From Minisyncoccota bacterium (GTDB lineage Bacteria > Patescibacteriota > Minisyncoccia > 2-02-FULL-40-12 > GWA2-44-9): a stretch of DNA of 64,000 nucleotides. Under the pieces are notes generated by a model. The model searched no databases. It worked only from the letters and a program-made list of their open reading frames with translations, and had not been told where the DNA came from. Positions 8,993 to 60,739 of this stretch are shown here, one piece after another; position 1 is the stretch's first letter, and each line of letters begins with the position of its first letter. A program made the translations under genes and the position numbers. The stretch lies in the NCBI GenBank assembly GCA_030583765.1, contig CP129474.1:331921-395920 (forward strand). The letters are read 5' to 3'.

Positions 8993-9340
8993 GGGGATGA
9001 TCGGTTTCGACGAGGTCGTTCATTGATACATCGCTGTGCGCGGATGACTATCCCCCCGCGTAATAAATCTAGTCAACTCATATTTGGCAACTCTCAACCA
9101 GTTGTTGCATACGCCTAGCTTTAGCGCGTAAGCCATCCAGCTCGGATACTCGCTACGAGATTCCTGGGTGTCATCAGCGAGATGCTCGTTTGTGCGTCCG
9201 TCCGCACGAACGCTAAGACCTGACGGAAACCCATGCACGACGTTTGGCGAAGTCATACGTGCACGGATACCAAATCGCCTATCACAGTACACGCGGTATC
9301 AGTAACACTTTGGACTGGGGTTCGATTCCCCACATCTCCA
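8993..9340 (+). ncRNA. ssrA: tmRNA (SsrA), 348 nt
   Basis: 5' GGGGATGATCGGTTTCGACG matches the tmRNA 5' consensus (GGGGCTGATTCTGGATTCGACGGG). 3' end ...GGGGTTCGATTCCCCACATCTCCA has a T-arm plus 7-bp acceptor pairing with the 5' GGGGAUG, including the G3-U70 alanine identity pair. CCA is not encoded. Candidate tag frame ends ...PVVAYA* (stop TAG 9111-9113). Confidence 0.75.
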
Positions 9341-9346
9341 CTACAG

Positions 9347-9384
9347 AAAAACAAAGCGCCCCATCGGGGCGTTTTGTTTTTCTG
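9347..9384 (+). terminator. Intrinsic terminator after tmRNA
   Basis: aaaaacaaagcgcccc-atcg-gggcgttttgttttt: 16-bp stem plus T-run. Confidence 0.7.
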
Positions 9385-9453
9385 TCTTGAAGGAAGGGAA
9401 TCGAACGGGTAGCGATAGGCCGATGCATAAAAATATAGCGGAAGAATTCTTAT

Positions 9454-10374
9454 CTAGTTACAATTCAGCGCCTTGCGCCAGCCGGCACTAAGGGCTTCAC
9501 TTTCGCTACAAAACCATCGCTCGCCCGCATCTTCGTTAATTTTCGTGGCGTTGTAAGAACGGCACCCTTCCACGTGATAGATTTTCTCTCCTGACGAGCT
9601 AATGTTCCCTTTTATATCGCATGTGCCACTTTGTGGAGCTAAAGTAGGCGTAGCTGCCTGCGCCGGCGCAGGAGTGGTAGTAGTTGAACAGGCTACGCCC
9701 CACAAACCAGTAGCGCTATTTCGGGCTTCAGTCTGCGCCGCTAGAAATACAGAATCGTATTTTACATCTGGCGGATATGTATATACCTTCGCAAATCCAT
9801 TCTTTACCAGCTCGAGATTCACAAAGAAATCACCCACATATACATAGCGAAGTAGTCGGCCGTACGCATCGCGATCTGTAACGTCTTTTTCTAACCTCAC
9901 ACTTTTTCCCAATACTAGCTCCGTATTTCGGCGAGAAGCTTCTTTCCCAAAGCATTGGACGGGCTTTCGAGGGTCGACTGTTTCCGGCGTATCGATGCCG
10001 ATATAACGAACGCGTTCGATAGTTCCATTATAGTCCACGTCAATCGTATCCCCATCAACCACGCGCGTAACGATAAACACATTTGGCAAACTTTGCGGTG
10101 ATTGTGTTTGTAGGAAGGGCGGTGTTGATACTGGAGCACTCTGTTGAAGCGTCGGTTGTTGGGTGGAGCGTTCTGCCCGCGGCGTTAGTGTTGGGGTGCT
10201 TTTTGGTAGCACAGAAGGAGTAACCGACGGACTCAATGTTACATCGCCAGTTTCAATGGCTTGGATCAGCAGCGCGCTTTCCTCCCCTTCTTCTTTCGGA
10301 GACTCCGAAAACAACGTGAGAAACAGAACCCCTCCGAGAAGAATAAGGCCTATGTTTTTGAATAACATCACCAT
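9454..10374 (-). CDS. Secreted/membrane-anchored thermonuclease (staphylococcal nuclease-like)
   Basis: N-terminal signal/TM (MLFKNIGLILLGGVLFLTLF). SNase core VVDGDTIDV...YIGIDTPE...RLLRYVY...GLW. Cys-rich C-terminal tail. Confidence 0.75.
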   Translation of the reverse strand: MVMLFKNIGLILLGGVLFLTLFSESPKEEGEESALLIQAIETGDVTLSPSVTPSVLPKSTPTLTPRAERSTQQPTLQQSAPVSTPPFLQTQSPQSLPNVFIVTRVVDGDTIDVDYNGTIERVRYIGIDTPETVDPRKPVQCFGKEASRRNTELVLGKSVRLEKDVTDRDAYGRLLRYVYVGDFFVNLELVKNGFAKVYTYPPDVKYDSVFLAAQTEARNSATGLWGVACSTTTTPAPAQAATPTLAPQSGTCDIKGNISSSGEKIYHVEGCRSYNATKINEDAGERWFCSESEALSAGWRKALNCN

Positions 10375-10444
10375 GCGCCTAGAAGTATTGATTATTTGTT
10401 CAAGCACTGCAATATAAGCACGTTTTAGCCCTTTCAGAGGTCGG

Positions 10445-10474
10445 TTGACACGTATGCATATTATGTTGTATAAT
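10445..10474 (+). promoter_or_regulatory. Consensus sigma70 promoter: TTGACA, 18-nt spacer, TATAAT
   Basis: Exact -35 and -10 hexamers upstream of the small high-GC ORF 10497..10703. Confidence 0.6.
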
Positions 10475-10496
10475 TATAGCTTAGAGAGGTGTCGAG

Positions 10497-10703
10497 ATGA
10501 AGAAGGCCATCGCAGTCTACGGAGTGAATTCCGTTCTGGGTCCGGTGCTGGTCGGCATCAGACTCGACGAGGACGCAGAAGCGCTGGCGCGGCAGTGGGA
10601 GCTCACGGTGGAAAAGAAAGAAACCGTGGGCGGATCGATCCGCCTCATCGCGCGCGACGGAGACAACCGACTGCTGTACCTGGACGAAGTTCCCATCCTC
10701 TAG
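10497..10703 (+). CDS. Small hypothetical protein (68 aa), high-GC cassette
   Basis: GAGAGG RBS, ATG start. Terminator immediately downstream. Confidence 0.45.
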   Translation: MKKAIAVYGVNSVLGPVLVGIRLDEDAEALARQWELTVEKKETVGGSIRLIARDGDNRLLYLDEVPIL

Positions 10704-10713
10704 CCCACGCCGC

Positions 10714-10763
10714 CCCGCACAAGAAGCCCCTCGCTTCGTCTGTGCGGGGTTTCTTTATTTTTA
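10714..10763 (+). terminator. Intrinsic terminator (ccccgcaca...tgtgcgggg plus T-run)
   Basis: 9-bp GC stem followed by tttctttattttt. Confidence 0.65.
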
Positions 10764-10845
10764 AGAACTAGATGAGCGGGATCCCCCCCTCACCCATACT
10801 TGCCGCGCACCTCTCGCAGTGCTACCGTGCCGGAAGGAGGTAGGC

Positions 10846-11091
10846 ATGAGCACCAGTCCGAGCGGTCCCATCGCACCCGAAGCCCCGTCGCCATCCCTCT
10901 GGCAGATGTCTCAAGAGGAGCTCTTGGCGCTGGCGGTTGTCAGGCTGCAGCTCGCGTGCACAAACTACAAACTCGCGCTCGAAGCCTCCGATGCGGGCAC
11001 TCGAGATGCGATGCGGCTTGCCGCAGAGCTGCGCAAAACAGAAGCCGAAGAGATCCTCGCGATCTACCGCGAGAGACTCCACCTCGACTAA
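10846..11091 (+). CDS. Small hypothetical protein (81 aa), high-GC cassette
   Basis: Strong RBS GGAAGGAGGT, 6 nt, then ATG (MSTSPSGPIAPE...). The track ORF starts earlier at a weaker start. Confidence 0.45.
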   Translation: MSTSPSGPIAPEAPSPSLWQMSQEELLALAVVRLQLACTNYKLALEASDAGTRDAMRLAAELRKTEAEEILAIYRERLHLD

Positions 11092-19810: not shown

Positions 19811-20194
19811 ATGAACGACTACCACGCAGAACTTGCCATCTCTAAAACACGAGCGCCAGCAGAGCCTGAGGGCCAGCTCACCATCGACGTCTTCCAGAAT
19901 GAAGACAATATTGTCATACAATCAACGATTGCCGGTGTCGCTCCCGAGAATCTCGACATTTCCATTACCGATGACATGGTTACTATTCGTGGTACGCGCA
20001 CACCAGAGCAGCGTGTACGCCCCACGGACTACTACTACCAAGAGCTCTTCTGGGGCCCCTTTTCACGCTCTATTATTCTCCCCGTAGACATCGATCCCGA
20101 TAGCGCGAAAGCCTCAATGAAGAATGGCATCCTCACCATTACATTACCGAAACTTGAGAAAGTAAAAACCCGCAAGATACGGGTGATTGAATAG
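19811..20194 (+). CDS. Hsp20/alpha-crystallin family small heat-shock protein
   Basis: 127 aa with an alpha-crystallin domain (IDVFQNEDNIVIQS...ASMKNGILTITLPK). Confidence 0.85.
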   Translation: MNDYHAELAISKTRAPAEPEGQLTIDVFQNEDNIVIQSTIAGVAPENLDISITDDMVTIRGTRTPEQRVRPTDYYYQELFWGPFSRSIILPVDIDPDSAKASMKNGILTITLPKLEKVKTRKIRVIE

Positions 20195-20276
20195 TGCTCC
20201 CGGCAGGACTTGAACCTGCACCTCGTGAGAGACATGGTCCTAAGCCATGCGCGTCTGCCAATTCCGCCACGGGAGC
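20195..20276 (-). tRNA. tRNA-Leu (anticodon TAG), type II with long variable arm
   Basis: Minus-strand cloverleaf: acceptor GCTCCCG/CGGGAGC, anticodon stem CATGG/CCATG, loop CTTAGGA, long variable arm, T-arm GCAGGTTCAAGTCCTGC. Confidence 0.8.
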
Positions 20277-20304
20277 GTTTCCCTAGCATACCCCAGAACC
20301 CCCA

Positions 20305-20339
20305 AAACACACAACGCCCCATAAGGGCGTTGTGTGTTT
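20305..20339. terminator. Bidirectional hairpin terminator between tRNA-Leu and the pilin-like array
   Basis: aaacacacaacgccc-cataa-gggcgttgtgtgttt: 15-bp stem. Confidence 0.6.
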
Positions 20340-20357: not shown

Positions 20358-20729
20358 CTAACGGAGCGAGCCTCGAGAGATGAGGCTTGCCAACGTGTTC
20401 AAGATAAGACCAATTGCCAAGATAACCGCTGCGCCCTTGATACCGTTCCAGATCTGCTCTTTTGCAGCACCGGCACCCTTGTCATCAGCGGACATGATCC
20501 ATTTAATGCCACCGATACCGATGTAGATAACGGCCAAAATCAAACCAATCGTGAGAATGAAGTTCGCGATCTGCTTCAAGAGGTCCTCAAGTTTGGTAAG
20601 GTCCAGAGTCGTTGTTGACTGAACTGGAGGGGTGGGGATGTTGATCTCTGCAGCGAGTACCAAGGCAGGAGAGAAGACAGCAAGTGCCAAGAGTGCTCCA
20701 GCTAGAATTTTTATATTACGTTTATTCAT
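20358..20729 (-). CDS. Pilin-like paralog 1: secreted two-helix hairpin protein (VirB2/TrbC-like topology)
   Basis: Start ATG 20729 (MNKRNIKILAGALLALAVFSPALVLA, signal peptide) preceded by AAGGGGGTGG. Mature part has two hydrophobic helices separated by the loop SADDKGAGAAKEQ. Confidence 0.6.
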   Translation of the reverse strand: MNKRNIKILAGALLALAVFSPALVLAAEINIPTPPVQSTTTLDLTKLEDLLKQIANFILTIGLILAVIYIGIGGIKWIMSADDKGAGAAKEQIWNGIKGAAVILAIGLILNTLASLISRGSLR

Positions 20730-20761
20730 ACGCCACCCCCTTTCTAAGAAATCGTACGGAC

Positions 20762-21214
20762 CTATCGCACGCACGAGCCACTACTTGAGCAATAATAACC
20801 CGCGGGGCACTGCGAACTACTAGTACAAGGGCCGACAAACCCGCCCGAATTGAAGCTCTGTGACTGGATGATCTCGTCAATCGTTTTTACCACAATGCCA
20901 AAGCCGAGAATAATCGCGATACCAATAAGCGCAGCTTTTATTGTACTTTTTGCCCCTTCAACGGCCTTAGTATCGGTCGCCGAAGTAATCCAGAGAATTG
21001 CTCCATAAGCAATGTAGCCAATACCGATCACAAGGCCTATGCCGAGTAGGAAGTTCACTACTTGCACAATAAGCTCTCGGATTTTATCAAGGGTAAGCGG
21101 AGTTCCTGTCACCGTAATCCCCTGTGGAGCCACGGCAGCAACGAAACTTGGAAGAATAATGAACGACAGAGCGAGTGTGACAATAAGTCCAGTAGTAAAT
21201 TTCCGTAGTGTCAT
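20762..21214 (-). CDS. Pilin-like paralog 2 with Cys-rich C-terminal tail
   Basis: Signal peptide (MTLRKFTTGLIVTLALSFIILPSFVAA). Same two-helix core as paralog 1 (VNFLLGIGLVIGIGYIAYG ... ALIGIAIILGFGIVV). Tail GPCTSSSQCPAGYYCSSSGSCVR. The track start at 21235 is a TTG. Confidence 0.6.
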   Translation of the reverse strand: MTLRKFTTGLIVTLALSFIILPSFVAAVAPQGITVTGTPLTLDKIRELIVQVVNFLLGIGLVIGIGYIAYGAILWITSATDTKAVEGAKSTIKAALIGIAIILGFGIVVKTIDEIIQSQSFNSGGFVGPCTSSSQCPAGYYCSSSGSCVR

Positions 21215-21224
21215 AGTGTGTATA

Positions 21225-21566
21225 TTATAAACCAACGCATGAAGGAAGTGAAGGCGTAGGCGCGCCGATAAACGCCGCGACGGTTAAAATAATCGTCCCC
21301 GCCCCCAAGATAACCGCCAGAGCAGTAAAGGCCCATATGAGTCCAGCTTTTGCCGAGCTAAACGGCCCAGGAGAACCCTGGCTCATAATCATCTTAATGC
21401 CGTACCATGCGATTCCTCCAATGACAAGAATGATGCTGACGCGGAGAAAAAAGCACATGAGCCCCGTGGCGATGATAATCACTCGCTCGTAGCCAAGATC
21501 CATTCCCGGAGTTTCTTGTATCCCCTCGGTAAGCGCTCCCGCCGCCATGTAGATAGGGTTGCTCAT
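21225..21566 (-). CDS. Pilin-like paralog 3 (no cleavable signal; two TM helices)
   Basis: ATG 21566 overlaps the TGA stop of paralog 4 (gaATGAgc), indicating translational coupling. Two long hydrophobic helices with a Pro/Gly-rich loop. Confidence 0.5.
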   Translation of the reverse strand: MSNPIYMAAGALTEGIQETPGMDLGYERVIIIATGLMCFFLRVSIILVIGGIAWYGIKMIMSQGSPGPFSSAKAGLIWAFTALAVILGAGTIILTVAAFIGAPTPSLPSCVGL

Positions 21567-22033
21567 TCTAAGATAACGCACGTACCATCACGGCACACCG
21601 CCCCTCCTGTGCACGGTGGATTACAGGCTGGGATTGGCGTTGGAGACGTGCCACTACCCCCAATATTCAACACACTCTCCACTAAATCTACGAACCCCCT
21701 GCCAATAAAGATGATAGCGAGACCGATCACTACTGACCAAATAATGTTATTCGCCTCTCCGATGGCTTTTGGATTTGATCCCGCGGTAAGGTATTTAATC
21801 CCCGCCCAGATGATCATAATAACCGCGATAGGAATAGCGATGGCGGTGATAAAGCGCAGTGCGGCGTTGATGAGATCAATAACGTTACCTGATGCAAGCG
21901 GATTTCTAAGACACAGAGAGCCCTCTGGACATGGGTCCGCGGCAAACGCAGAGCTAGAGCTAAACAGGAGAACGCCAACAAGAAGAGTCATAAGCAGTAC
22001 TCGCATCATATTAGTTATTATATCACGCCTCAT
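21563..22033 (-). CDS. Pilin-like paralog 4 with Cys-rich N- and C-terminal segments
   Basis: Signal peptide MMRVLLMTLLVGVLLFSSSSAFA. Motif AALRFITAIAIPIAV shared with the fusion protein. Tail ACNPPCTGGAVCRDGTCVILE. Confidence 0.6.
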   Translation of the reverse strand: MRRDIITNMMRVLLMTLLVGVLLFSSSSAFAADPCPEGSLCLRNPLASGNVIDLINAALRFITAIAIPIAVIMIIWAGIKYLTAGSNPKAIGEANNIIWSVVIGLAIIFIGRGFVDLVESVLNIGGSGTSPTPIPACNPPCTGGAVCRDGTCVILE

Positions 22034-22038
22034 TTAAG

Positions 22039-22989
22039 CTAATTTAATTGCCAGTGAATATGATTCGTTTGCGAAACCGCGCAGTCTGCGACAACCGCAC
22101 CGCCCGCCGCTTCACAAATAACGTATCCCCCACGCAATGCGAGAAAATCACGGGCCGCTCGCCATTTTGCTGAGTCGCCGCTCGGGATAGTAATGTCAAC
22201 CGCAGTGCCGCGATAATGCTGACTATTGGCGCTATGGCTTCCAGTCGTAAGCGACGATACGACAAATTGGTGCCCATTCTGAGAAAGGGCTATAAGACCG
22301 TCAAGGATGCGTTGGTCAACGGTAACCGTACCCGACGCGCCACCTGGAGTGCATCCAGCAGCGCATCGGTTACTACACACCGACGGAAGTTGTCCCGCTG
22401 CCAGCGAATCTATATTCCCCCGCGCATGATTTGGAGCACCACAATCGGCACTTGTAGAGAATGTAACGCCACCCTGCGTAAGAAGACGTTGAGCTGCGGC
22501 CTGCACCGACGAAGATGGCGGCACCGAAACGGTATTCGTCGGAGCTGGAGGAAGATTTATATTCTCATCGGGCGTACAGGTAATCGGTTCATACCATTTT
22601 ACATTCGCGCCGAAATAGTTACTCGCCACAAATTTTAAGAATGTATTCACCACCATCCATGCAAGCATAATCACCACAAGCCCAATAATTGCATTTGAAA
22701 AAAGCGTATTGCTCTGTGAGACGCTCTTTGTGTTTGTTGCTCCCGCAACCCGGATAAAACCGGCAATGATAAAAAGAATAGTGGCTACCAGGGGCGCCGC
22801 AACAAACATCACGAATCGAAGAGCAGAATCTGCTGCCTCAACGAGATGGCACGTCTGACACATCGCATTCACCCCTGTGTCAGTCGACTTCCCACAAGGG
22901 ACCACAGCAGCCTCTACGGGAAGAGCAAAGACTCCACTGAACATGACTGCGAGTACCGCCCCCGACATGATGCGAGTGAGTGTGCTCAT
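22039..22989 (-). CDS. Fusion protein: N-terminal pilin-like two-helix domain plus C-terminal peptidase M15 (LAS/VanY-like) peptidoglycan hydrolase domain
   Basis: N-terminus (signal, CxxxC, SALRFVMFVAAPLVA, second TM) is paralogous to the small proteins. C-terminal about 180 aa carry the Zn-ligand pattern of LAS/M15 peptidases: SHSANSQHYRGTAVDI (H-x6-D) and NHIHWQ (HxH). ATG overlaps the stop of the upstream SBP gene (ATGA). Confidence 0.6.
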   Translation of the reverse strand: MSTLTRIMSGAVLAVMFSGVFALPVEAAVVPCGKSTDTGVNAMCQTCHLVEAADSALRFVMFVAAPLVATILFIIAGFIRVAGATNTKSVSQSNTLFSNAIIGLVVIMLAWMVVNTFLKFVASNYFGANVKWYEPITCTPDENINLPPAPTNTVSVPPSSSVQAAAQRLLTQGGVTFSTSADCGAPNHARGNIDSLAAGQLPSVCSNRCAAGCTPGGASGTVTVDQRILDGLIALSQNGHQFVVSSLTTGSHSANSQHYRGTAVDITIPSGDSAKWRAARDFLALRGGYVICEAAGGAVVADCAVSQTNHIHWQLN

Positions 22990-24347
22990 GGTTTACGGCG
23001 AAGTTCCTGCATGAGGACTGATACACGAGCCTCTGCGTTGCGCAGCGCCTCACGCACTGAAGATCTACCGAAATTGACACTATCAATCATCTCCGCAAAG
23101 ATCGTTTCGATTGCCGAAAAATCCGCCTGGAACCAACTTTGCGCAGTGAGCGCTTGATCTGCAAATACGCCAAGATCGGGATCGGTTTTTTGGCGTGTAA
23201 TGATGCTCCGCAACGCCGCGGGACGGCGCGCCTCTGATAGATACAACGTTGCCCCCTCCTCTGACGCCAAGAAGTCGACGAACTCCCACGCCTGATCCAC
23301 ATACGGCGACGCCGCAGACACAACAGGAGTCCAGTAGTTTGCGTATGTGCGCACATCGTTGCGCGCCAACTGCTGTGCGTGTTGTGGCATCGGCGCAACT
23401 GCGATATTCAAACGCGGCGCACGAGCACGAATCGCGTCAATTTGGTGAGCATAGTTAAACATCATCGCCGCATTTCCTTCCACAAAAGCATCGATCGAGT
23501 AGTGTTGCGAATCGTTCCACGTGTACGAAACTTTCCCCGGATTAGTAAAGTCAGTGTAGTATTGCAGTGCAACCTCCCCTACGGCCTGATTATTCACCGA
23601 GCGACCAAACGTTGCTTCTGTGCGGTCAGCGTCCGTCATTTGAACGCCGCTCTGCAGCATCAGTGCCGCAAGAATATCGGTTGAACGATTAATATTGCGC
23701 GCAGAGCCGATCGCCGCCCCCGCGCGAACGATATTCTGCCGATCGTCTCGTGTTGTCAGCTTCTCAACCGCCTGATTAAATTCCTCCCACGTACGCGGAG
23801 GGTTTTCTATGCCCGCAGCGTTGAAAAGGTCGCGGTTCCAGTAGAGCGCAAGAGAATCAACGTACAGTGGCAGTGAATAGATTTTGCCATCAGCGATAAG
23901 GTCCCTCTGGGCGACGTCGACAAAAGATTCTTGAAATTCACGCTGTGTCATAAGCGGCCCGTCGGCGCCAGACACACGTTCTGGCATGGGGGCCAGTTTC
24001 GCCTTATGCTTCGGGAGCCAAGTGTGGTGAATCATCCACACGTCCGGACCGCGACCAGACGCGAGCGCTTCAATTACGTCACGCTCATATGTTGCATAAG
24101 AAAACAGTTTGTAGGTAACGCGTATGTTTGGGTGAAGCGACTGGAACTTGTCGAGCGCGGGGCGCATGATGCGCGGATCGTCGAATACTCCCCAGAACGT
24201 AATTTCAGCTCGCGCTTCTTGCTCATTACCCCCTCCTCCAAAACCACGGAGTACAAGAATGGCGGTGAGAAAAACGAGTAGCCCAACAGAAATGCCAAGA
24301 ACATATACGAGACGATTTGGGCTAGTAAGCGTTTGAAAAATACTCAT
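22986..24347 (-). CDS. Membrane-anchored extracellular solute-binding protein (SBP family 1-like)
   Basis: N-terminal TM (LVYVLGISVGLLVFLTAILVL) then a periplasmic-binding-protein fold typical of sugar ABC SBPs. No permease or ATPase genes adjacent. Confidence 0.65.
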   Translation of the reverse strand: MSIFQTLTSPNRLVYVLGISVGLLVFLTAILVLRGFGGGGNEQEARAEITFWGVFDDPRIMRPALDKFQSLHPNIRVTYKLFSYATYERDVIEALASGRGPDVWMIHHTWLPKHKAKLAPMPERVSGADGPLMTQREFQESFVDVAQRDLIADGKIYSLPLYVDSLALYWNRDLFNAAGIENPPRTWEEFNQAVEKLTTRDDRQNIVRAGAAIGSARNINRSTDILAALMLQSGVQMTDADRTEATFGRSVNNQAVGEVALQYYTDFTNPGKVSYTWNDSQHYSIDAFVEGNAAMMFNYAHQIDAIRARAPRLNIAVAPMPQHAQQLARNDVRTYANYWTPVVSAASPYVDQAWEFVDFLASEEGATLYLSEARRPAALRSIITRQKTDPDLGVFADQALTAQSWFQADFSAIETIFAEMIDSVNFGRSSVREALRNAEARVSVLMQELRRKP

Positions 24348-24898
24348 GACGTCTTTTTAAAAATGAGAATGTAGTGAAATGCCCCTGCGTCCGCATTCCG
24401 CTCAAAAACAAAACCCTCTTTTTGCACGATAGTGCGCATATCGTCCACGCTCGTGCGCATATCGTCCACGGGCCCCATGCCACCGGCCCCCTTTGCCCAT
24501 TCTATAACCACTAGGCGCCCGTCTAACTTGAGTACCCGATGCGCTTCTTGAAGAATGTTTTCTTTTTTTTGAGATTGGAAGAGGACGTTTGCGATTGTCA
24601 CCATATCGAGGGCACCGTCTGGAATGCCGGTGCTCTTAGGAACCTCAAGATCCGCTCGAACAGTCCGAATATTTTCAAGCCCAGCCGCTTGCGCACGAGT
24701 TCGCACGCTTTCGAGCGGTGGATTTTGCACATCGATCGCAACAACCTCGCCGCGTGATCCCACGCGTTGGCCAAGCTGAATCGTATAAAAACCTGTGCCG
24801 CATCCAAAGTCGGCAACGCGCATCCCCTCACGAACGCCGACGTCCTTCAGAGATGCTGATGTATCTAAAAACGGCCGCTGTGCATGTTCTGACATCAC
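24344..24898 (-). CDS. Class I SAM-dependent methyltransferase
   Basis: VADFGCGTGFYT motif I. Contains an in-frame 21-nt tandem duplication (VDDMRTS/VDDMRTI). Stop overlaps the SBP start. Confidence 0.75.
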   Translation of the reverse strand: MMSEHAQRPFLDTSASLKDVGVREGMRVADFGCGTGFYTIQLGQRVGSRGEVVAIDVQNPPLESVRTRAQAAGLENIRTVRADLEVPKSTGIPDGALDMVTIANVLFQSQKKENILQEAHRVLKLDGRLVVIEWAKGAGGMGPVDDMRTSVDDMRTIVQKEGFVFERNADAGAFHYILIFKKTS

Positions 24899-24936: not shown

Positions 24937-27405
24937 CTATGCGAGAACAACCGAAACAACACGATCGCCCGCTTCAAGTTTCATCACACGAACTCCCTGC
25001 GTTGCGCGGCCTAAGAGCGAAACAGCGTCGATGGTTGTGCGGATGACCTGCCCCTTGCTCGAAACGGCGATGAGCTCCTTGAATTCTTCAGACGCAATGT
25101 GCGCCGATACTAGGCTTCCCGTTTTTTCAGTGATCTTTGCCGTCATAATGCCCTTGCCGCCACGCTTTTGCACTTTATATGCCTTGAGTTCCGTACGCTT
25201 TCCATAACCCCGCTCCATTACCGCCAAGAGTTGCAGGCCCTTTTCTGATCCTGCAGGAACACAATCTGCGCCCACCAGCCGCTCGCCCGCTTCGATACGA
25301 ACACCGATCACGCCGCCGGCGGTACGGCCCATTGGACGAACTTCTTTTTCTTCAAACCGAATAGCATTCCCTCCAGAGGTTGTCATGATAATCTGGTCTT
25401 TTCCTGATGTGACGAGCACCCAGCGCAATGCATCGCCCGGCTTGAGGTTCATGGCGATCATGCCGTTCTTTCGCACATTTGCGAAAGCGTCGAGAGGAAC
25501 TTTTTTCACCACGCCCTGTTCGGTCGTCATGAAGAGGAACCCACCCTGTCCTTTTTTGCTCTTTGGGACAGGAACCACCGCGGTGATCACATCGCTTGAA
25601 GAGACCTGTAGGAAGTTTGCGATTGCTCGTCCCTTCGATTGGCGCGAAGACTCAGGGACTTCGTATCCCTTCGTTTGGAATACCTTACCTGACTGCGTGA
25701 AGAACAAGATGTTGTCATGTGTATTCGCAAGGAAGAACTGGGTAACGACATCTTCTTCTTTTGTAGCAATGCCAACAAGTCCCTTACCGCCGCGCTTCTG
25801 GGCACGCAAATCTTCTGGGGCAAGACGCTTGATGTACCCGCCATGCGTCATCATGAAGAGGGCGCTCTCTTCGGGGACAAGCTCTTCGTCTCCAATCTCT
25901 CGGAGAGCCGACTTCACAACATTCGTGCGGCGATCGTCGCCGTACACATCTGCGATGTGCTGAAATTCTTCTTTAATAACTGCGAGAATCTTTTTCGGAT
26001 GCTTGAGTAGGTCTTCAAGATATGCGATGAGCTTACGCTTCTCCGCGAGCTCGTCATCGATCTTTTTCCGCTCAAGGCCGGCGAGCGTCTGTAGGCGCAT
26101 GTCCAAAATTGCGTCGGCCTGCCGCTCCGAAAAAGCAAACTTCTTCATCAAATTTACACGCGCATCTTCGCGTGCCTGAGACTTTTTAATAGTCTCGATG
26201 ATCTTATCAATGTGGTCGAGCGCCTTACTCAATCCTTCAAGGATGTGCGCCCTGTCCTTTGCTTTTGCAAGATCGTATTCTGTGCGGCGCGTTACCACCA
26301 CCTTGCGATGAGAAATAAACTGCTCCAACAGGGGCTTTAGCCCGAGCACATTGGGCTGAATGCCGTCCACAAGCGCCAACATGTTAAAGTGAAACGTTTT
26401 TTGGAGTTCCGTAAACTTGTAGAGCTGGTTGAGGATCTTCTTTGGAAATGCGTCCTGCTTTAATTCAATGACAACACGAATATCGCGACCTGATTCATCG
26501 CGCACATCCTTAATACCCTCAACCTTCTTTTCTTTCACGAGATCTGCGATCGCGACAACGAGATCGGACTTGTTCACCTGATACGGAATCTCGCTAATGA
26601 TAATGTCAAAGCCACGCTTTGATTCCACAATCTCCGCTCGCCCACGCATCACTACTGGACCGCGGCCAGTTGCATATGCATTAATAATGTCCTTCTCGTT
26701 ATAAATGGTGCCGCCCGTTGGAAAGTCTGGGCCCTTCACAAATTCCATGAGGTCTGTGACGTCGGCATCAGGGTTGTCGATAAGATGCACGAGCGCCTGA
26801 CACACCTCACGTAGATTGTGTGGAGGAATGTTAGTCGCCATACCGACGGCAATGCCCATCGAGCCGTTCACGAGCAGATTAGGAATGCGCGCCGGAAGAA
26901 CCGCTGGCTCCTTACGGGATCCATCGTAGTTGTCTCGAAATTCAACAGTGTCTTTTTCGATATCCGTAAGGAGTTCGTCACTGATGCGTGCGAGACGTGC
27001 CTCAGTGTAGCGCATAGCTGCGGCGTTATCGCCGTCAATTGAACCAAAGTTTCCCTGTCCTTGTACGAGCGGGTAGCGGAGTGAGAAGTCTTGCGCCATG
27101 CGCACCAAGGCATCATAGATCGCAGAGTCACCGTGCGGATGGTAGCGGCCCATCACCTCACCAACGGTGTTCGCAGACTTGCGGAGCTTTGCCCCCGCAA
27201 CATTCCCCGACTCCCACATGCCCCACAGAATGCGGCGATGCACTGGCTTAAGACCGTCGCGCGCGTCAGGAAGTGCGCGCGAAATAATAACGCTCATCGC
27301 GTATTCCAAATATGAACGTTGTACTTCTTCGGTGATATCCCGGGGAAGTACGTTGCTCGTGCGCTCTATGTGGTCGTCAGAGGATGCCATAGCTGAAGTA
27401 TTCAA
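24937..27405 (-). CDS. gyrA: DNA gyrase subunit A
   Basis: 822 aa. Active-site region [30 protein letters not shown] is the QRDR-like region. C-terminal beta-pinwheel repeats. Confidence 0.9.
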
Positions 27406-31464: not shown

Positions 31465-31537
31465 CGGCCCGTAGCTCAGTTGGTAGAGCAGGCGTCTTAT
31501 ACACGCCGGGTCCCTGGTTCGAGTCCAGGCGGGCCGA
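31465..31537 (+). tRNA. tRNA-Ile with anticodon TAT (UAU, reads AUA). First pair C1-G72
   Basis: Hand-folded: acceptor CGGCCCG/CGGGCCG, D-arm GCTCAGTTGGTAGAGC, anticodon stem GGCGT/ACGCC, loop CTTATAC, T-arm CCTGGTTCGAGTCCAGG. Confidence 0.65.
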
Positions 31538-31585
31538 CTATATACTCAATACAATGCCCACTGCTGGGCGTTGTATAGAAAAGAA

Positions 31586-51813: not shown

Positions 51814-52905
51814 CTAAGTTCTCAGTGGCATAATAATATACTGCGTCCCGCCCTGTTCTTGGGTCGGTTTTAGAATAATGGGGCTTGTGGGGCTTGTGAA
51901 TTCCAATACAAGCGCATCGGTATCAATAACTTTTATCCCATCAAGTACGTACCGAAAGTTTGCAGAAATTAAAAACCCATCCCCCTGTATTGTAGCTGGT
52001 ATCTTCGTCTCCACCTCTCCCCTCTCTGTGTTCTTTGCTTGAATAATACATTCGTCTTTTTCAGCGCGAATAAGAATGTCTGAAATACGAGAAGAAAACA
52101 GTCCTCCTAAGCGAATTGATTGCTCAAAGTCTCCTTTTTGCACCAACAATTTACTCTGTGGACGATCTGGTATAACCCGCGCATAGTCTGGGTATACTCC
52201 ATCAATAACACGCGTCACACATACGCACGAATCGTGAACAAATGCGACTTGATGCTCATGTATATAAATTGCCACATCACCCTCAAGATCTCCGGCGATA
52301 CGAGAAACTTCTAATATAGCTGACCGAGGAATAATGACGCTCGTTTCTCGGTTTGTCTGCGCCGGAATTCTCTTTTCTACAAGACGGAAGCTATCCGTTG
52401 CGGCAACAATACACTCTTTCCCTGTAAATCTCATATATGCGCCGGAAAGTTCTGGGCGCGCATCAGAAAGAGCCATGGTATCGTGGGTGACTTGAAGTAG
52501 TTTTTGTAAATCTCCAGAATGCAAGACAGACACTTTTCCTTCAGTAATATTTGGAATGATAGGAAAATCTTTTGCATCAACGCCGAGGAGCGTTGTTCGA
52601 GCGCTCTTTCCCTTTATAATAATCTTTTGATCTTTTACAGAAAGCTCTAAAACGTCGTCGTGGATACTGTGAAGAAACTCATGAATGACTTTCCCCGACA
52701 CTGCTACACTCCCCTCTTCATCGACTCGCGCACCAAGGGTTGCGGTAATGCCCACCTCAAGATTTGTGCCAACACATTCAATCTTTCCCGGACGAGCTCG
52801 AATGAGGACATATGAGAGAATAGGAAGCGCCCCTGCCTTAGCGGTTGTTCTCTCAACATAGGAGAGAGCTCTTAAAAAGTGGTCTCTGGAAAAGTGTGCT
52901 TTCAT
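51814..52905 (-). CDS. dnaN: DNA polymerase III beta sliding clamp
   Basis: Three-domain beta clamp (MKAHFSRDHFLRALSYVERTT...). Start taken at MKAHF. Confidence 0.85.
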   Translation of the reverse strand: MKAHFSRDHFLRALSYVERTTAKAGALPILSYVLIRARPGKIECVGTNLEVGITATLGARVDEEGSVAVSGKVIHEFLHSIHDDVLELSVKDQKIIIKGKSARTTLLGVDAKDFPIIPNITEGKVSVLHSGDLQKLLQVTHDTMALSDARPELSGAYMRFTGKECIVAATDSFRLVEKRIPAQTNRETSVIIPRSAILEVSRIAGDLEGDVAIYIHEHQVAFVHDSCVCVTRVIDGVYPDYARVIPDRPQSKLLVQKGDFEQSIRLGGLFSSRISDILIRAEKDECIIQAKNTERGEVETKIPATIQGDGFLISANFRYVLDGIKVIDTDALVLEFTSPTSPIILKPTQEQGGTQYIIMPLRT

Positions 52906-53162
52906 AGCGTAGTAGTTACTATAGTATATATACAAACTATTATCATTATTATAGGAGAGGTTGTCCGTGTATAATTCTGTGAATAACACCCTACCCCTCT
53001 CATATTTCCTTGATTATTTTTCATACGACTCGTGTTGATAGAATGTGTAAATGTCGGTGGTAGTGTGGGGAATGTGCGGGGCGAGTCATGGATATCTTTT
53101 GTATTCTACTCAGATACACTGAAGTAATCACTCCGCTAAACACAGGGATATCAACAAGATAC

Positions 53163-54545
53163 TCACGACTTTAAAAGTGAATCGTTATAGACACGTTCTC
53201 GAATAAGGGTGAGTTCTTGTTTTACAGACTCGTCTTCTGATTCCTCCTTCTTTATTTTCTCGCAAGCATGAATAACAGTTGAATGGTCTCTTCCGCCGAG
53301 CTTCGCTCCAATTTCCGGGAACGAAAGCTTCACCTCTTCGCGGAGAAGGAACATAGCAATCTGTCGTGGTTTTACAACCTCTTTCTTTCTACTCCGCTTC
53401 AAGAGGTCGTTTTGAGAGATGCTGTAAAAATCAGCGACGGATTTTAAGATCGACTGAGGCGACGTTTTTCTATAAGGAACGCTGAGATATGCCGTGAGAA
53501 TGTTTTTTACCTCTTTTACGTCTGGGAGCTTGTTATATATTTGAGCGAACGCAAGAACTCTATTAAGAGCCCCCTCAAGCTCGCGAACATTTTTTTGAAT
53601 ATGTGTGGCGATGTAGACAAGAACCTCATCATCTGCTGCGTAACCCTTTTCTGTGCACTTGGAGCGTAAAATCGCGAGACGTGTTTCAAAATCGGGCATT
53701 CCAATATCAGCCATCATGCCCCCTTCGAAACGTGAGCTCAGGCGCTCTTCAAGGGTCGGGATTGCTTTAGGAAGACGGTCTGACGTGAGAATTACCTGCT
53801 TATTTCTTACGTGAAGCTCATTGAATATAGAGAATACAATTTCCTGTGTTTTGTCTTTTCCAGCTATAAACTGAATATCGTCGATAATGAGCAAATCGAG
53901 GCGGGCATACGTATTTTTTATATCCTCTATCGTTCTTAGGCGAATACTTTCTAGAATAGTTGCGGTGAGTTTTTCCGCGGAAATATATAAGACGCGTCGC
54001 TGGGGATTTTCTGTAAGAAGTTTGTTTCCCACCGACTGCACGAGGTGTGTTTTTCCAAGCCCAACACCGCCGTATAAGAACAGGGGGTTATAAAGTTTGC
54101 CAGGATTTTTTGCTACTGCCTGGGCGGCCGCGAATGCAAGCTCATTATTGGACCCGACAATAAAGGACTCAAAGGAATACTTTCTATTGAGATGGGTTGT
54201 TTTGTCGATATCCGAGCTAATTTGGGCGCTATTTTCCTCAATCTCCTTCTCTAAAATAATCTTAGAAATATCTTGCTTTGTAATATCTTGCTTTGGCTGC
54301 CCGATAATGTAGCGAACGTCACGAACTTCCGGGGCATGCTTTCGAATAAGTTGAATAATTTGCTTATGAAACTTGTTTTCAAGCCACTCGCGCACAAAGC
54401 CATTTGGAACGCTTACAAAAACACCATTCTGATCACGCGAAACTATTAGGGTGTTTTTAAACCAAGTTGTAAAGTGTGCGCGAGAAAGAGACAACTCCAT
54501 TTCAGCGAGGACGGCTTTCCAAAGTTGCTCGTTCGTCATTTGCAT
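53163..54545 (-). CDS. dnaA: Chromosomal replication initiator DnaA
   Basis: AAA+ Walker A NPLFLYGGVGLGKTHL, Walker B LLIIDDIQF, and the C-terminal DNA-binding HTH (GGRDHSTVIHACEKI). Confidence 0.9.
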   Translation of the reverse strand: MQMTNEQLWKAVLAEMELSLSRAHFTTWFKNTLIVSRDQNGVFVSVPNGFVREWLENKFHKQIIQLIRKHAPEVRDVRYIIGQPKQDITKQDISKIILEKEIEENSAQISSDIDKTTHLNRKYSFESFIVGSNNELAFAAAQAVAKNPGKLYNPLFLYGGVGLGKTHLVQSVGNKLLTENPQRRVLYISAEKLTATILESIRLRTIEDIKNTYARLDLLIIDDIQFIAGKDKTQEIVFSIFNELHVRNKQVILTSDRLPKAIPTLEERLSSRFEGGMMADIGMPDFETRLAILRSKCTEKGYAADDEVLVYIATHIQKNVRELEGALNRVLAFAQIYNKLPDVKEVKNILTAYLSVPYRKTSPQSILKSVADFYSISQNDLLKRSRKKEVVKPRQIAMFLLREEVKLSFPEIGAKLGGRDHSTVIHACEKIKKEESEDESVKQELTLIRERVYNDSLLKS

Positions 54546-54593
54546 GGAGATGGGCTCAAACCAGACCGTGCTCAACCCTACCGCGCCCTCCAA

Positions 54594-55178: not shown

Positions 55179-55396
55179 GGCACGTTGTACTATTTTTTAT
55201 CCGAGCCTATCAAGCCATCTCCCCCGTCCTTTGGTCTGCGCGGATTGTTCCCGTTGTCAGTGGGTGCCGATTCTCTCCGTCGTGCAGCGAGCGCCTTGCT
55301 CAAGAGATTCATTCACATGGAATTACTCGCGGAATAGCGGCAGCACTACCTCAGCTTTCCTCTTGTCATCCTTGGCATAACACAAAAACATCCTGA
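55175..55396 (+). CDS. yidD: Membrane protein insertion efficiency factor YidD
   Basis: CRFSPSCSE motif. Position between rnpA and yidC. Confidence 0.75.
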   Translation: MRHVVLFFIRAYQAISPVLWSARIVPVVSGCRFSPSCSERLAQEIHSHGITRGIAAALPQLSSCHPWHNTKTS

Positions 55397-56076
55397 TGTT
55401 CGAAACCCTTCTTCATAAACCAGTAGTTAACATCCTTATTGGGATTACTGGTAGCGTCTCAGGCGGCTCTCTCGGCGCAGCAATCATTATTCTGACGGTT
55501 GTTGTAAGGCTTTTTCTTGCGCCCCTCTCAATAAAAACACTACGATCACAGCAAAAGCTTCAAGAGCTCTCAGATAAAACAAAGGCATTGCGTGACAAGC
55601 ACGCAAATGATCCAGCCGCGCAAAACGCGGCAATTCTTCAGCTGTATAAAGATCACAACGTCAATCCACTTTCAGGATGCCTTCCGCTGCTTATACAATT
55701 CCCACTCATTATCGCTCTTTATAAAGGATTTCTTTCCGTGCTGAGCGGTACGTATGCCTCTCTGCTATATGCGTTCACTCCTCAGCCAGAGCAGCTTGTT
55801 ACCACGTTTGTTGGCATAGTGCTTACGGCGCCGAACCATTTACTCGCCATTATCGCAGGGGTTGCGCAATTTGCGCAGCTTTGGGTTAGCGCGCGCTATC
55901 AAGCCCCCTCCGCGACCCCCAACCCACTGCAATCAAAGCAGTTTCTCATTCTTTTCCCCGCGCTCGTTGTTGTTATCGGTTGGAATTTGCCCGCCGGGCT
56001 CTCGCTCTACTGGGCTATTTCAACCCTTCTCTCTATTGGAGAGCAGCACTACGCTCGAGTTACTGCAGGCCGCTAA
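55396..56076 (+). CDS. yidC: Membrane protein insertase YidC (short form)
   Basis: Five-TM core with the conserved LYKDHNVNPLSGCLPLLIQFPLIIALY region. Confidence 0.8.
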   Translation: MFETLLHKPVVNILIGITGSVSGGSLGAAIIILTVVVRLFLAPLSIKTLRSQQKLQELSDKTKALRDKHANDPAAQNAAILQLYKDHNVNPLSGCLPLLIQFPLIIALYKGFLSVLSGTYASLLYAFTPQPEQLVTTFVGIVLTAPNHLLAIIAGVAQFAQLWVSARYQAPSATPNPLQSKQFLILFPALVVVIGWNLPAGLSLYWAISTLLSIGEQHYARVTAGR

Positions 56077-57133
56077 GAGGAACTGTATATATCCCAACGC
56101 CGCTTGCTGGGACCACGAACGCACTCGTCTCGAGCGTGTTGATCGCTATAGACCGGACTCCCATGGCCGTTACTGTGTCTGAGGGAATCGTAGAAACCTT
56201 TTCTGTACCAAGCGCGTATGACACAAAACGTGTTTCTTGGCCGCTTTTAACCACACAAAGAATGCCGGCGGAGTTTTTTCTCCAAGCACATAGGTGTGGC
56301 GAGGTTGCAACCCCCACCTCGTAAGATCCAGTGAGTGTAGTAATAAAAAGATTGGACGCTTCCCCTCCCTGTTGTGCGGTGTGTAAGAGCGCTTCGCCAT
56401 TCGGCGCCCAGAGTAATTGGGGTGATCTATGATGCGCTATAACACGACCAAGCTCCCCGCTTCTAGATATTAACAGTACGTCACCGGTCTGCGAGCTCTG
56501 GTTCTTTACGAGAAGACTCAACGTGTTTTGTTGTGGCCAAAAAAGATCTCCACCTAGGGCGCGCGTTTGTGTCCACTGAACGCGCTCGGACCCATCAAGC
56601 TTCTGGGTAAAGATACCACCAGGCTCCCCAGGCTCCAGCGTTGCTATGGAAAGGCCGTCGGGAGAAAACGCCGCCGCTACTGCTTTTTGCAATACTGAAG
56701 TTTTCTGCTCGCCAAGTCGAACAAACTTGAGCTGCTCGCCTTGGGGCGTGCGAACCCTTGCGATGAGGCTCGTTTTGAGTGGCGACCACCGTACATCAAT
56801 AAGGTCTGGTATGCGCAAGGAAAGAGGAACCTCTTCTCTTGTTTCTGTATCTATTCGATAAACGCGACCTGATGGAGTATCTACAAACAACACCGAAGTG
56901 CTTGTGGGGCCAGCGGTCATAAACGAGACGGTGCGCTCTGTGACGAGGGTGCCGGAGCTTTGTTGGGGCGACGGCGTCGGCCCTTCTTTACTGGGGACGT
57001 ATGCGGCGCCCTGCTGGAGCGTCAAAGCGACACCAGGTGTCTCGTTTGGGGTGTTTATAATATACCAACCAAGTCCGCCAGATGCGGAGAGAGAAAGCGC
57101 TATGAGTGCCAAGAGAAGGTTTCGTTGATTCAT
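56060..57133 (-). CDS. Signal-anchored beta-propeller-like (TolB/WD40-like) extracytoplasmic protein
   Basis: N-terminal TM MNQRNLLLALIALSLSASGG, then repetitive beta-strand-rich segments. 4-nt overlap with the upstream gene. Confidence 0.45.
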   Translation of the reverse strand: MNQRNLLLALIALSLSASGGLGWYIINTPNETPGVALTLQQGAAYVPSKEGPTPSPQQSSGTLVTERTVSFMTAGPTSTSVLFVDTPSGRVYRIDTETREEVPLSLRIPDLIDVRWSPLKTSLIARVRTPQGEQLKFVRLGEQKTSVLQKAVAAAFSPDGLSIATLEPGEPGGIFTQKLDGSERVQWTQTRALGGDLFWPQQNTLSLLVKNQSSQTGDVLLISRSGELGRVIAHHRSPQLLWAPNGEALLHTAQQGGEASNLFITTLTGSYEVGVATSPHLCAWRKNSAGILCVVKSGQETRFVSYALGTEKVSTIPSDTVTAMGVRSIAINTLETSAFVVPASGVGIYTVPLSGLQ

Positions 57134-57696
57134 GAAGCTGGTTTCTTTGGTGTTTCCGGCGTCATTCCGACCATTCCCGCTGCTTGCTGCGAGGCTTTCT
57201 TTACAACTGGGCTTTTCAGTACTGGAGCAATGATACTCGCCCCCTCCACCGCCCTCGCTGCCGTTTTCTTCACTATATCGCGAGAGGAGAAGAACATCCA
57301 GATAAGCACAATGCTTCGGATTGGAAGGGCTGAAGGAAGTGTCGGAATCTTTTCAATTCCCGCCGATATAAGAAACTTTCGCATCTGCGATTTCGATGCT
57401 GAAGTGACGCTAAAGAGTACATAAAGGAGGATGTCTGCACAGAGCCCCACGAGCCACCCCAATGTTCCGCCGGTAAAAAATTCTGCAGCATCAGCGGGGA
57501 TTGCAAGAAACGTGAGTCCAAAAAGAAAGCTCACAACTCCCATTTTTTTCTCCTCCTCGCCCCCCTCCTCTTCTACGACGCTCTCTGCCCTCTTTTGCGC
57601 AACGGCCCGTGCAAGCGCCTGCGCTCTGCGGGCTTCTTCGGCGAGCTCTTGTCGTTCCCAGTCTTCCATGGCTATGAGGCGTTCAGCTGGGCCCAC
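57130..57696 (-). CDS. Membrane protein with charged cytoplasmic N-terminus and 3 TM helices; T4SS-associated by position
   Basis: Glu/Ala/Arg-rich N-terminus, then TM helices. Overlaps the virB4 3' end by 25 nt. Confidence 0.4.
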   Translation of the reverse strand: MGPAERLIAMEDWERQELAEEARRAQALARAVAQKRAESVVEEEGGEEEKKMGVVSFLFGLTFLAIPADAAEFFTGGTLGWLVGLCADILLYVLFSVTSASKSQMRKFLISAGIEKIPTLPSALPIRSIVLIWMFFSSRDIVKKTAARAVEGASIIAPVLKSPVVKKASQQAAGMVGMTPETPKKPAS

Positions 57697-60055: not shown

Positions 60056-60330
60056 TATTTGTATAGATACTTTTTAGGATTAAGCCCATACGAGAGCGCG
60101 TATGCAACATAGTTAATGAGCGGCATGTCCTCTATTTTTAAGAACGCGAACGCGAGAGAGGTAAATGCCGCAAGCGCCGCTACGGCAATAAAGGCGATTC
60201 CGTTAAGGAGCGCAAAGGCGATGAAAACTATAGAGCCCCCCATGGCGACCCACAAAAATTGGCGAAGCGTAAATGGCCCCACGAGGCGTGGCTCCGTCTC
60301 AATAAATTGTGGGACTTGGAATCGGGCCAT
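60055..60330 (-). CDS. PrgI/VirB3-like small T4SS membrane protein
   Basis: MARFQVPQFIETEPRLVGPFTLRQFLW then two TM helices. Located immediately upstream of virB4, as in Gram-positive and CPR T4SS loci. Confidence 0.55.
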   Translation of the reverse strand: MARFQVPQFIETEPRLVGPFTLRQFLWVAMGGSIVFIAFALLNGIAFIAVAALAAFTSLAFAFLKIEDMPLINYVAYALSYGLNPKKYLYK

Positions 60331-60336
60331 AATGTA

Positions 60337-60738
60337 TTATACCCCACTCTTGTTCCGGAGATCGACCACATTGTTTGTTACCTGTTCAGCGCTACCCGTT
60401 GGTGTGCCTAAGATGTTTTCGATTTCTTTTGCCGCGGCGATAGCAATATCATTTTGCAGCCCCCGCGCGACAAGGAACGACGGAACTTTTTCTAGTGCGA
60501 TGGTGCGCGTAGCTACTTCGCGGAGCGCGAAGGCAATGTCTTCGACTACATCATATTTAAGATTATATTGATCGCCGAATGCGACAAGTTTTTCAGCGGT
60601 TTCCTGCGCTACTAAGATAGCCTTTATGTTTTGAGGAAGGGTTCCAAATACAGCGATAAAAGCGCCCCTAGTCTTCGGATCCTCTTTTAGGCGTTTTGCC
60701 AAGTATGGCGCCGCAAAGTAGTAATTCAATATAGACAT
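60337..60738 (-). CDS. Hypothetical soluble protein (133 aa) within the T4SS cluster
   Basis: ORF with a tight 1-6-nt spacing to its neighbours. Confidence 0.4.
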   Translation of the reverse strand: MSILNYYFAAPYLAKRLKEDPKTRGAFIAVFGTLPQNIKAILVAQETAEKLVAFGDQYNLKYDVVEDIAFALREVATRTIALEKVPSFLVARGLQNDIAIAAAKEIENILGTPTGSAEQVTNNVVDLRNKSGV

Positions 60739-60739
60739 G

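Follow-up and report, generated by a model that had tools for sequence, protein, structure and literature searches.

Does a run of pilin-like genes in a Candidate Phyla Radiation (CPR) bacterium carry its own wall-cutting enzyme? The question is raised by seven closely packed minus-strand genes (block 20358-24898, from a methyltransferase gene to pil1) in a 64,000-nucleotide stretch of a Minisyncoccota bacterium genome (contig CP129474.1; hereafter the window, whose positions are used throughout). Five of these genes encode paralogs that profile comparisons show to be homologous to the pilins of type IV secretion systems (T4SSs; VirB2/TrbC type, PF18895/PF04956). The largest paralog ends in a head of the LAS fold with its catalytic residues intact, and a substrate-binding protein (SBP) is encoded next to it. 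We consider it fairly probable that the locus encodes a pilin-tethered peptidoglycan peptidase of a CPR T4SS or pilus apparatus, with the orphan SBP as its partner. The fusion and the SBP-fusion-pilin gene order are widely conserved, and a fusion gene is linked to virB4 in another genome. The genes of the block and the parts of the fusion protein are as follows.

24344-24895 or 24898, minus strand: S-adenosylmethionine (SAM) methyltransferase gene, the first gene downstream of gyrA
22986-24347, minus strand: SBP gene (453 aa)
22039-22989, minus strand: pilin-LAS fusion gene (316 aa)
Fusion aa 1-27: signal peptide, followed by a Cys-containing N-terminal stretch
Fusion aa 46-126 (22612-22854, minus strand): pilin hairpin, with R80 and K88 in its short polar loop
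Fusion aa 127-159: Pro/Ser/Thr-rich linker, of low confidence in the structural model
Fusion aa 160-316 (22042-22512, minus strand): LAS/Hedgehog-DD-peptidase zinc peptidase domain
21563-22033, minus strand: pil4 (156 aa)
21225-21566, minus strand: pil3 (113 aa), the likely start being the ATG that overlaps the pil4 stop
20762-21214, minus strand: pil2 (150 aa)
20358-20729, minus strand: pil1 (123 aa)

An earlier note, written from this DNA alone, had assigned the five proteins to VirB2/TrbC-type pilins by their architecture, and Pfam and leave-one-out profiles now agree on this identity. Measured against the Pfam gathering scores of 26.6 bits for PF18895 (T4SS_pilin) and 27.9 bits for TrbC/VirB2 (PF04956), pil4 passes both cut-offs (34.4 and 36.0 bits, respectively) and pil1 passes the first (32.3 bits; TrbC 25.6 bits). 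The fusion (25.7 bits) and pil2 (24.9 bits) fall about 1-2 bits under the PF18895 cut-off, and pil3 has no Pfam match. The leave-one-out profiles were built from the small open reading frames (ORFs) of related loci, here given L numbers, with each window paralog and its orthologs omitted in turn. They recovered pil1 at 2e-20, pil2 at 7e-23, pil3 at 1.5e-13, pil4 at 3e-19, and the fusion at 1e-7 to 1e-10, and matched none of the other window ORFs of 50 aa or more. That only the five paralogs are matched is far beyond chance.

The paralogs are divergent, with pairwise identities of 25-37% in alignments. Hydropathy and alignment give pil1, pil2, pil4, and the fusion a signal peptide and two hydrophobic helices with a short polar or basic loop; pil3 also has the two helices and is the only paralog lacking a signal peptide, the earlier note having likewise counted one such protein. 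Cysteine content varies from none in pil1 to 10 residues in the fusion. Cys-rich C-terminal tails are present in pil4 (ACNPPCTGGAVCRDGTC) and in pil2 (CTSSSQCPAGYYCSSSGSC), the latter tail having no counterpart in the orthologs of the two closest genomes. A phage, holin, or immunity identity was considered for the five proteins and rejected, as no PHROG match and no holin or immunity Pfam family was found for them.

For the fusion, whose identical (100%) NCBI record is hypothetical protein QY311_01885 of Candidatus Paceibacterota, an AlphaFold2 model was built on 126 sequences. It reached a mean pLDDT (predicted local distance difference test) of 88.8, with values >95 in the LAS head, and shows a signal helix, the hairpin helices (46-82 and 87-126), the linker, and a globular head. 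The predicted ligand and catalytic residues of the head are H252, H258, D265, E293, H310, and H312, arranged in the zinc motifs H258-x6-D265 and H310-I-H312. H258, G261, D265, and H310 are invariant among the 126 family members, and H312 and H252 are at least 90% conserved; E293 stands within a conserved C-E motif and is invariant in a 17-sequence domain alignment. The proposal that the largest paralog is a LAS/M15-type zinc peptidase fusion with H-x6-D and HxH motifs therefore holds, and careful alignment found the zinc ligands intact. The standard topology of VirB2 has both termini outside, so the head would face the wall. The many conserved cysteines, which in the head are residues 183, 205, 213, 292, and 303, fit an extracytoplasmic location.

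The closest relatives of the head are Hedgehog proteins. A PDB search with the single sequence of the C-terminal 174 aa returned only Sonic hedgehog (Shh) N-domains, at E ~0.05, and the 126-member profile reached this domain (ShhN) at E=3e-7. In the alignment of the family profile with ShhN, the pattern GsHsanSkHYqGrAvDi...cE...HIH pairs with Shh H135, H141, D148, E177, H181, and H183; in the Hh/DD-peptidase (LAS) family, zinc is bound by H141, D148, and H183 of Shh, with E177 acting as catalytic base (PMC6027127). Structural matches of the head include the M15-family enzymes LdcB, MepA, and VanX, and the nearest ones outside Hedgehog include the phage endolysins T5, LysB4, and Ply500. The fusion has no match to the curated M15 and HH_signal Pfam models, even at E<=0.1, so that the Pfam Peptidase M15 check proposed for this protein came out negative for the window fusion itself, and no Pfam match to an SLT or CHAP domain was found in it. 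The head is a divergent branch close to Hedgehog, and we infer peptidase activity, with peptidoglycan as the likely substrate.

As judged from sequence searches, the pilin-LAS fusion is a large conserved family and not a one-off. Word-indexed homolog searches were nearly empty (4 matches with the fusion and 6 fragments with the domain profile). An exhaustive search with the head domain against 1.84 billion cluster representatives (clusters at 50% identity) recovered 359 clusters at E<=1e-3 and 95 at E<=1e-10, almost all with H-Y-x-G-x-x-x-D and a C-terminal H-x-H. Of 126 representatives scanned, 110 contain PF18895 and 12 contain TrbC, and very few reach HH_signal (7), Peptidase_M15_3 (4), or Peptidase_M15_4 (2); this near-total lack of curated matches points to a divergent subfamily without a Pfam model. 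Extra domains include SLT (6/126) and PG_binding_1 (2/126), with GH46, phage lysozyme, and Ig-like domains in others, and the added SLT, PG_binding_1, GH46, and phage lysozyme domains point to a peptidoglycan-directed role. A pilin-LAS protein is encoded on a contig binned as 'Bdellovibrionales' (L012, 9083-10471), which could reflect misbinning or transfer, a LAS head alone ends a 1502-aa protein of a Frankiaceae metagenome-assembled genome (MAG; L011, 5957-10465), and the core motif of the head is also present in several Solirubrobacteraceae MAGs.

The SBP is a full-length member of its fold, matching SBP_bac_1 at 8.5e-34 (118 bits, nearly the full model) and SBP_bac_8 at 6e-28 in Pfam, and its nearest solved relatives in the PDB bind sugars (E ~1e-15). 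It had been described as a lipoprotein, which is ruled out: the sequence has no cysteine at all, making a lipobox Cys impossible, and the protein instead has a single N-terminal hydrophobic anchor (transmembrane residues 11-40). The accompanying observation that it has no ABC (ATP-binding cassette) partner held across the whole 64-kb window, in which no ORF carries an LSGGQ signature and no permease or ATPase was found; none is adjacent to the SBP gene in L061-L063, L065, L067, or L069 either. Homologs number >1000, and those listed are 54-62% identical, making the SBP better conserved than its pilin neighbours. The SBP gene lies directly upstream of a fusion gene in ~20 loci, some with an SBP merely 29-36% identical to that of the window. 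The order SBP-fusion-pilin is kept in L006 and L031-L033, where the SBP is 29-36% and the fusion 25-32% identical, and also in L065 (a pilin-LAS-SLT variant), L067, L068, and L069. The likely role of the SBP is thus that of a functional partner of the pilin cassette. Three fusion loci without an upstream SBP gene (L025, 3-1025; L026, 1-1110; L028, 4734-6113) instead encode a conserved, divergently transcribed coiled-coil secreted protein with the motif QKQIEEIQRQIE, which may be M23/EnvC-like.

A candidate for the secretion machinery is encoded in the same window, next to the replication genes.

57672-59462, minus strand: VirB4-like ATPase (Pfam P-loop_TraG, AAA_10, and CagE_TrbE_VirB)
59417-60055, minus strand: TraC-like ORF, overlapping the VirB4-like ORF by 46 nt
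60055-60330, minus strand: PrgI/VirB3-like ORF
60740-63094, minus strand: 784-aa protein without a Pfam match
51814-52989, 53163-54593, and 55396-56076: dnaN, dnaA, and yidC, adjoining the VirB4 cluster

This monoderm-type T4SS cluster (56060-63915, minus strand) also holds a 273-aa protein without a Pfam match, and a monoderm-type VirB4 system near dnaA has been reported for Paceibacteria (PMC12102498). In another genome (L066, assembly GCA_001793865.1), the gene for a pilin with two LAS domains lies 2 kb downstream of virB4, and the cluster there (734-aa protein, PrgI, TraC-like, and VirB4) is collinear with the window cluster at 57.6-63.1 kb. The TraC-like/VirB4 split recurs in L066 and is therefore probably real rather than the product of a frameshift. 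The window VirB4 cluster is probably the partner machinery of the pilin cassette. In L066, a nucleotidyltransferase/HepT-like toxin-antitoxin pair (9382-10001) separates the virB4 cluster from the pilin-2xLAS gene. The window further contains a PilB/GspE-type ATPase (44307-46085; T2SSE, MshEN), so type IV pilus machinery, distinct from the VirB2-like pilins, is present in this genome as well.

We propose the following mechanism. In the cassette, four of the VirB2-like pilins would be small and divergent, and the remaining one would bear a LAS (M15A-like) head on a flexible Pro/Ser/Thr linker. The proteins would be exported by Sec, pil3, which has no signal peptide, being directly inserted, and each pilin would form a helical hairpin in the membrane, its two termini lying outside. 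The VirB4-type machine encoded beside dnaA would recruit the pilins, presumably for assembly into a pilus, and the peptidase head would be held on the outer face of the membrane or on the pilus, where it could cut peptide stems or cross-links of peptidoglycan. Its target might be the cell's own wall, letting the pilus through in place of VirB1, or the wall of a contacted host cell. Most Patescibacteria with VirB2 have no recognisable VirB1 (PMC12102498), which leaves room for a pilin-LAS protein as a substitute. The membrane-anchored SBP would act as a functional partner outside any ABC importer, and may serve as receptor, sensor, or adhesin by binding glycan or muropeptide.

Several points weigh against this proposal. 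The VirB4 cluster of the window (57672-63094) is not adjacent to the pilin cassette, lying 35 kb away, and the cassette itself stands within a housekeeping block that is syntenic across the lineage. Fusion genes occur without the SBP gene in L025, L026, L028, L064, and L066, and L064 has a pilin gene and an SLT_2 gene. Scans of the region with sigma-70 promoter and terminator consensus sequences gave no score above the shuffle background. To our knowledge, no peptidase substrate has been accepted for Hedgehog itself, and the integrity of a LAS site is therefore no proof of peptidoglycan hydrolysis. It may also be difficult to fit a globular head of 160 aa into a filament of the VirB2 type unless the fusion is a minor, tip, or basal subunit, and no experiment is known to show pilus formation by PF18895 proteins in any CPR bacterium.

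The arrangement of the genes is consistent with a single transcript from the methyltransferase gene to pil1. The three ATGA start/stop overlaps claimed before, at methyltransferase/SBP, SBP/fusion, and pil4/pil3, are all present in the sequence, the non-overlapping junctions are spaced by 5-32 nt, and this tightly packed block ends at a terminator-like hairpin after pil1. The flanking features are:

24937-27405: gyrA, upstream of the methyltransferase gene
20304-20337, minus strand: terminator-like hairpin after pil1, with a 13-bp perfect stem followed by UUUU
20194-20276: tRNA-Leu, beyond the pil1 hairpin

In RNA folding, the hairpin has an energy of -30.6 kcal/mol (z = -6.4), and 0/200 shuffles were equally stable. 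The top sigma-70-like site (TTCACT-17-TATAAT, 21252-21224, minus strand, 10/12 matches, not above shuffles) lies directly upstream of pil2 and is a possible sign of an internal promoter serving pil2 and pil1.

Whether the methyltransferase belongs to the pilin system, as the earlier note had it, is uncertain. The enzyme is a cytoplasmic class I methyltransferase of 183-184 aa and of the UbiE/Methyltransf_11-31 type (Methyltransf_31 5e-20 and Ubie_methyltran 2e-17 in Pfam). Its gene is upstream of the SBP gene in L001-L005, L008-L010, L027, L029, L061-L063, and L065, and lies between gyrA and the SBP gene in every long-contig relative. The search for the same gene order in related CPR genomes was successful, the order methyltransferase-SBP-fusion-pilins being kept in close relatives and in more distant Paceibacteria/Yanofskybacteria genomes, with the caveat that the same relatives also keep the surrounding block (FtsH, S1, MBL, GyrA ... 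HSP20, PrsW, tRNA synthetase, TsaD). As the whole block is equally syntenic, adjacency does not show that the methyltransferase is a member of the system. An integral role, for example in modifying the pilins or the SBP, seems rather doubtful to us. The ATGA overlap with the SBP gene speaks for it, as does the methyltransferase-SBP-fusion order found in every relative with enough upstream sequence, L065 included. However, the order may be inherited synteny, given that these genomes have gyrA and the rest of the block in common as well, and the overlap gives way to gaps of 10-80 nt in L008, L009, and L027. The enzyme is also a generic cytoplasmic UbiE-type protein whereas its putative targets are exported, and the contigs of the distant SBP-fusion loci are too short to reveal the upstream genes.

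Two further observations come from relatives. In L008 (2627-6523), the gyrA ORF has ~1298 aa as compared with 811-822 aa in the window and other relatives, possibly through an insertion such as an intein. In the H41 relative (L001, 17376-18473), an RVT_1 gene, probably of a group II intron or retron, lies between tsaD and rplT, and it is missing at the equivalent place in the H51 relative (L004).

Comparison with the two closest genomes, whose GyrA is about 96-97% identical to that of the window, indicates which parts of the cassette change fastest. The SBP is 90-92% identical, pil1 88-89%, pil3 86-92%, the methyltransferase 85-86%, the fusion hairpin 83%, pil4 73-81%, and pil2 58-61%. The fusion head is 66% identical in one of these genomes, and the other has a different LAS variant (37%). 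The L004 fusion (10001-10882, protein P0003) has a head in which the H...D pair is retained with a longer spacing, together with HVH, and this suggests a recent exchange of its head domain. Among relatives, 3 to 6 pilin genes follow the fusion gene, and in several of them the pilins reach ~290-380 aa with large C-terminal extensions. By these comparisons, the parts predicted to be exposed diversify and are swapped, and the membrane parts are kept, which fits a surface location of the head and tails.

This pattern bears on a second explanation, in which the fusion is a housekeeping, membrane-tethered LD/DD-peptidase (LdcB/CwlK-like) that trims the cell's own peptidoglycan during growth or division. 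PF18895 would then be a mere two-helix anchor, the SBP would sense or recycle wall fragments, and the paralogs would never polymerise and would be unrelated to secretion. The location of the cassette fits such a role, as it lies in a conserved core block from gyrA to hsp20/prsW in all relatives and not beside virB4 in the window. The high conservation of the SBP among the listed homologs and the presence of LdcB, MepA, and VanX among the structural matches of the head fit as well, and a class A penicillin-binding protein is encoded in the window, showing that the organism has a wall to remodel. However, a pilin-LAS member is embedded in the virB4 cluster of L066, and the essential pilin array of Southlakia lies inside its T4SS cluster (PMC10633639). 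The head and tails moreover change at rates well above those of housekeeping genes, and near-identical genomes differ by an exchanged head, a pattern not typical of a housekeeping enzyme; the number of paralogs also varies between relatives. We therefore regard a purely housekeeping role as unlikely.

Least probable of the alternatives is an anti-host lytic effector or bacteriocin-like system, whose LAS head would be a toxin, secreted or delivered by contact, that lyses the host wall and releases nutrients, with the Cys-rich tails as host-binding or toxin modules and the SBP capturing the freed sugars or muropeptides for import. The fast diversification and the exchange of heads, the SLT, GH46, and phage lysozyme domains of family members, the endolysins among the closest non-Hedgehog structural matches, and a secreted nuclease elsewhere in the window would suit it. 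Against it, an immunity gene is not apparent, the window has no ABC permease or ATPase that could serve uptake, no phage-family (PHROG) match was found, and the head is covalently attached to a membrane hairpin and shows no evident cleavage site. We regard this reading as distinctly improbable.

The pilin-tethered peptidase could also be taken further. In this extended form, which we put forward tentatively and think unlikely to be right, the CPR T4SS pilus has its own enzyme: a minor pilin displays the Hedgehog-like peptidase along the filament or at the tip and, aided by a dedicated SBP that recognises wall glycan and works independently of any transporter, cuts host peptidoglycan to establish the epibiotic connection, swappable heads and variable Cys-rich tails setting the host range. 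The nuclease just mentioned (9454-10407) is a genuine staphylococcal-type SNase-domain protein (4.5e-25), as had been noted before. Its inclusion with a '3D-domain protein' (38391-39098) in one host-wall-penetrating apparatus is speculation. No Pfam 3D match was found in the latter, whose sole match is a weak one to DUF7373. Elsewhere in the window are a tmRNA (8993-9341, tag GNSQPVVAYA) and a tRNA-Ile with a UAU anticodon (31465-31538; ARAGORN).

From a biological perspective, the pilin-LAS fusion, if it works as in the extended form above, would be the first enzyme-bearing conjugative-type pilin and would give the Hedgehog/DD-peptidase fold a defined role at a bacterial cell-cell interface. 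Much of bacterial diversity belongs to the Patescibacteria, whose life seems to be spent in attachment to other microbes, and a T4SS with its pilin array is essential in the sole genetically tractable Patescibacteria species. The family offers a concrete candidate for the wall-cutting activity that is missing with VirB1, and its fast-evolving, exchangeable head is a candidate determinant of host specificity. A substrate-binding protein that operates independently of any transporter is suggested by the conserved orphan SBP, and the family extends a poorly understood bacterial branch of the Hedgehog/DD-peptidase fold.

How much of this is new? The earlier note held that the combination had not been described before. 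For the pilin array this does not stand: arrays of 2-11 VirB2-like pilin genes, with divergent paralogs of 25% mean identity, were described in 383 Patescibacteria assemblies (Quinonero-Coronel et al. 2025, PMC12102498), and Southlakia epibionticum has an essential six-pilin array inside its T4SS cluster (Wang et al. 2023, PMC10633639; PMC12857230). For the fusion and the SBP link it does, as neither a pilin-peptidase fusion nor a linked SBP is mentioned in these three papers. Literature searches on PF18895, pilin-hydrolase fusions, and CPR M15 proteins also found no description of the fusion or of a linked SBP, with incomplete journal coverage that makes this absence no proof. The pilin-LAS family and its link to an SBP thus appear to be new.

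Compared with the Patescibacteria arrays, the window paralogs are likewise tandem, divergent members of PF18895/PF04956, with a monoderm-type VirB4 cluster near dnaA and no relaxase or coupling protein seen in the window. Unlike those arrays, the window array is 35 kb from virB4, has one LAS-headed member, and is preceded by an orphan SBP gene. Similar to the VirB1-type hydrolases (VirB1, TraG of pIP501, and PrgK of pCF10), the fusion is a putative peptidoglycan-directed enzyme genetically tied to T4SS components, and some pilin-LAS family members also contain SLT or lysozyme domains. However, VirB1 proteins are separate lytic transglycosylase/CHAP proteins, neither LAS peptidases nor fused to a pilin.

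The head shares its zinc motif and catalytic Glu with the bacterial Hh-like domains of the Hedgehog/DD-peptidase family, a subgroup of MEROPS M15A (Roelink 2018, PMC6027127; PMC8052667), and its top sequence and fold matches are the ShhN domain of that family. The described 'bacHh' proteins are >50% identical to ShhN, whereas the window head is ~27-28% identical over ~100 residues, and the fusion differs from Hedgehog/DD-peptidases in having an extra Cys-rich N-terminal subdomain and a T4SS pilin hairpin as its partner. Its distance from the solved M15 peptidases is larger still, at 11-17% identity (Streptomyces albus Zn DD-peptidase 1lbu, the phage T5 and Ply500 L-Ala-D-Glu peptidases, LdcB, VanX, and MepA). 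Finally, the SBP has the full-length SBP_bac_1/SBP_bac_8 fold of carbohydrate ABC SBPs (MalE/TMBP/UgpB type) but, unlike them, is anchored by a helix, and its conserved partner genes encode pilins rather than transporter subunits.

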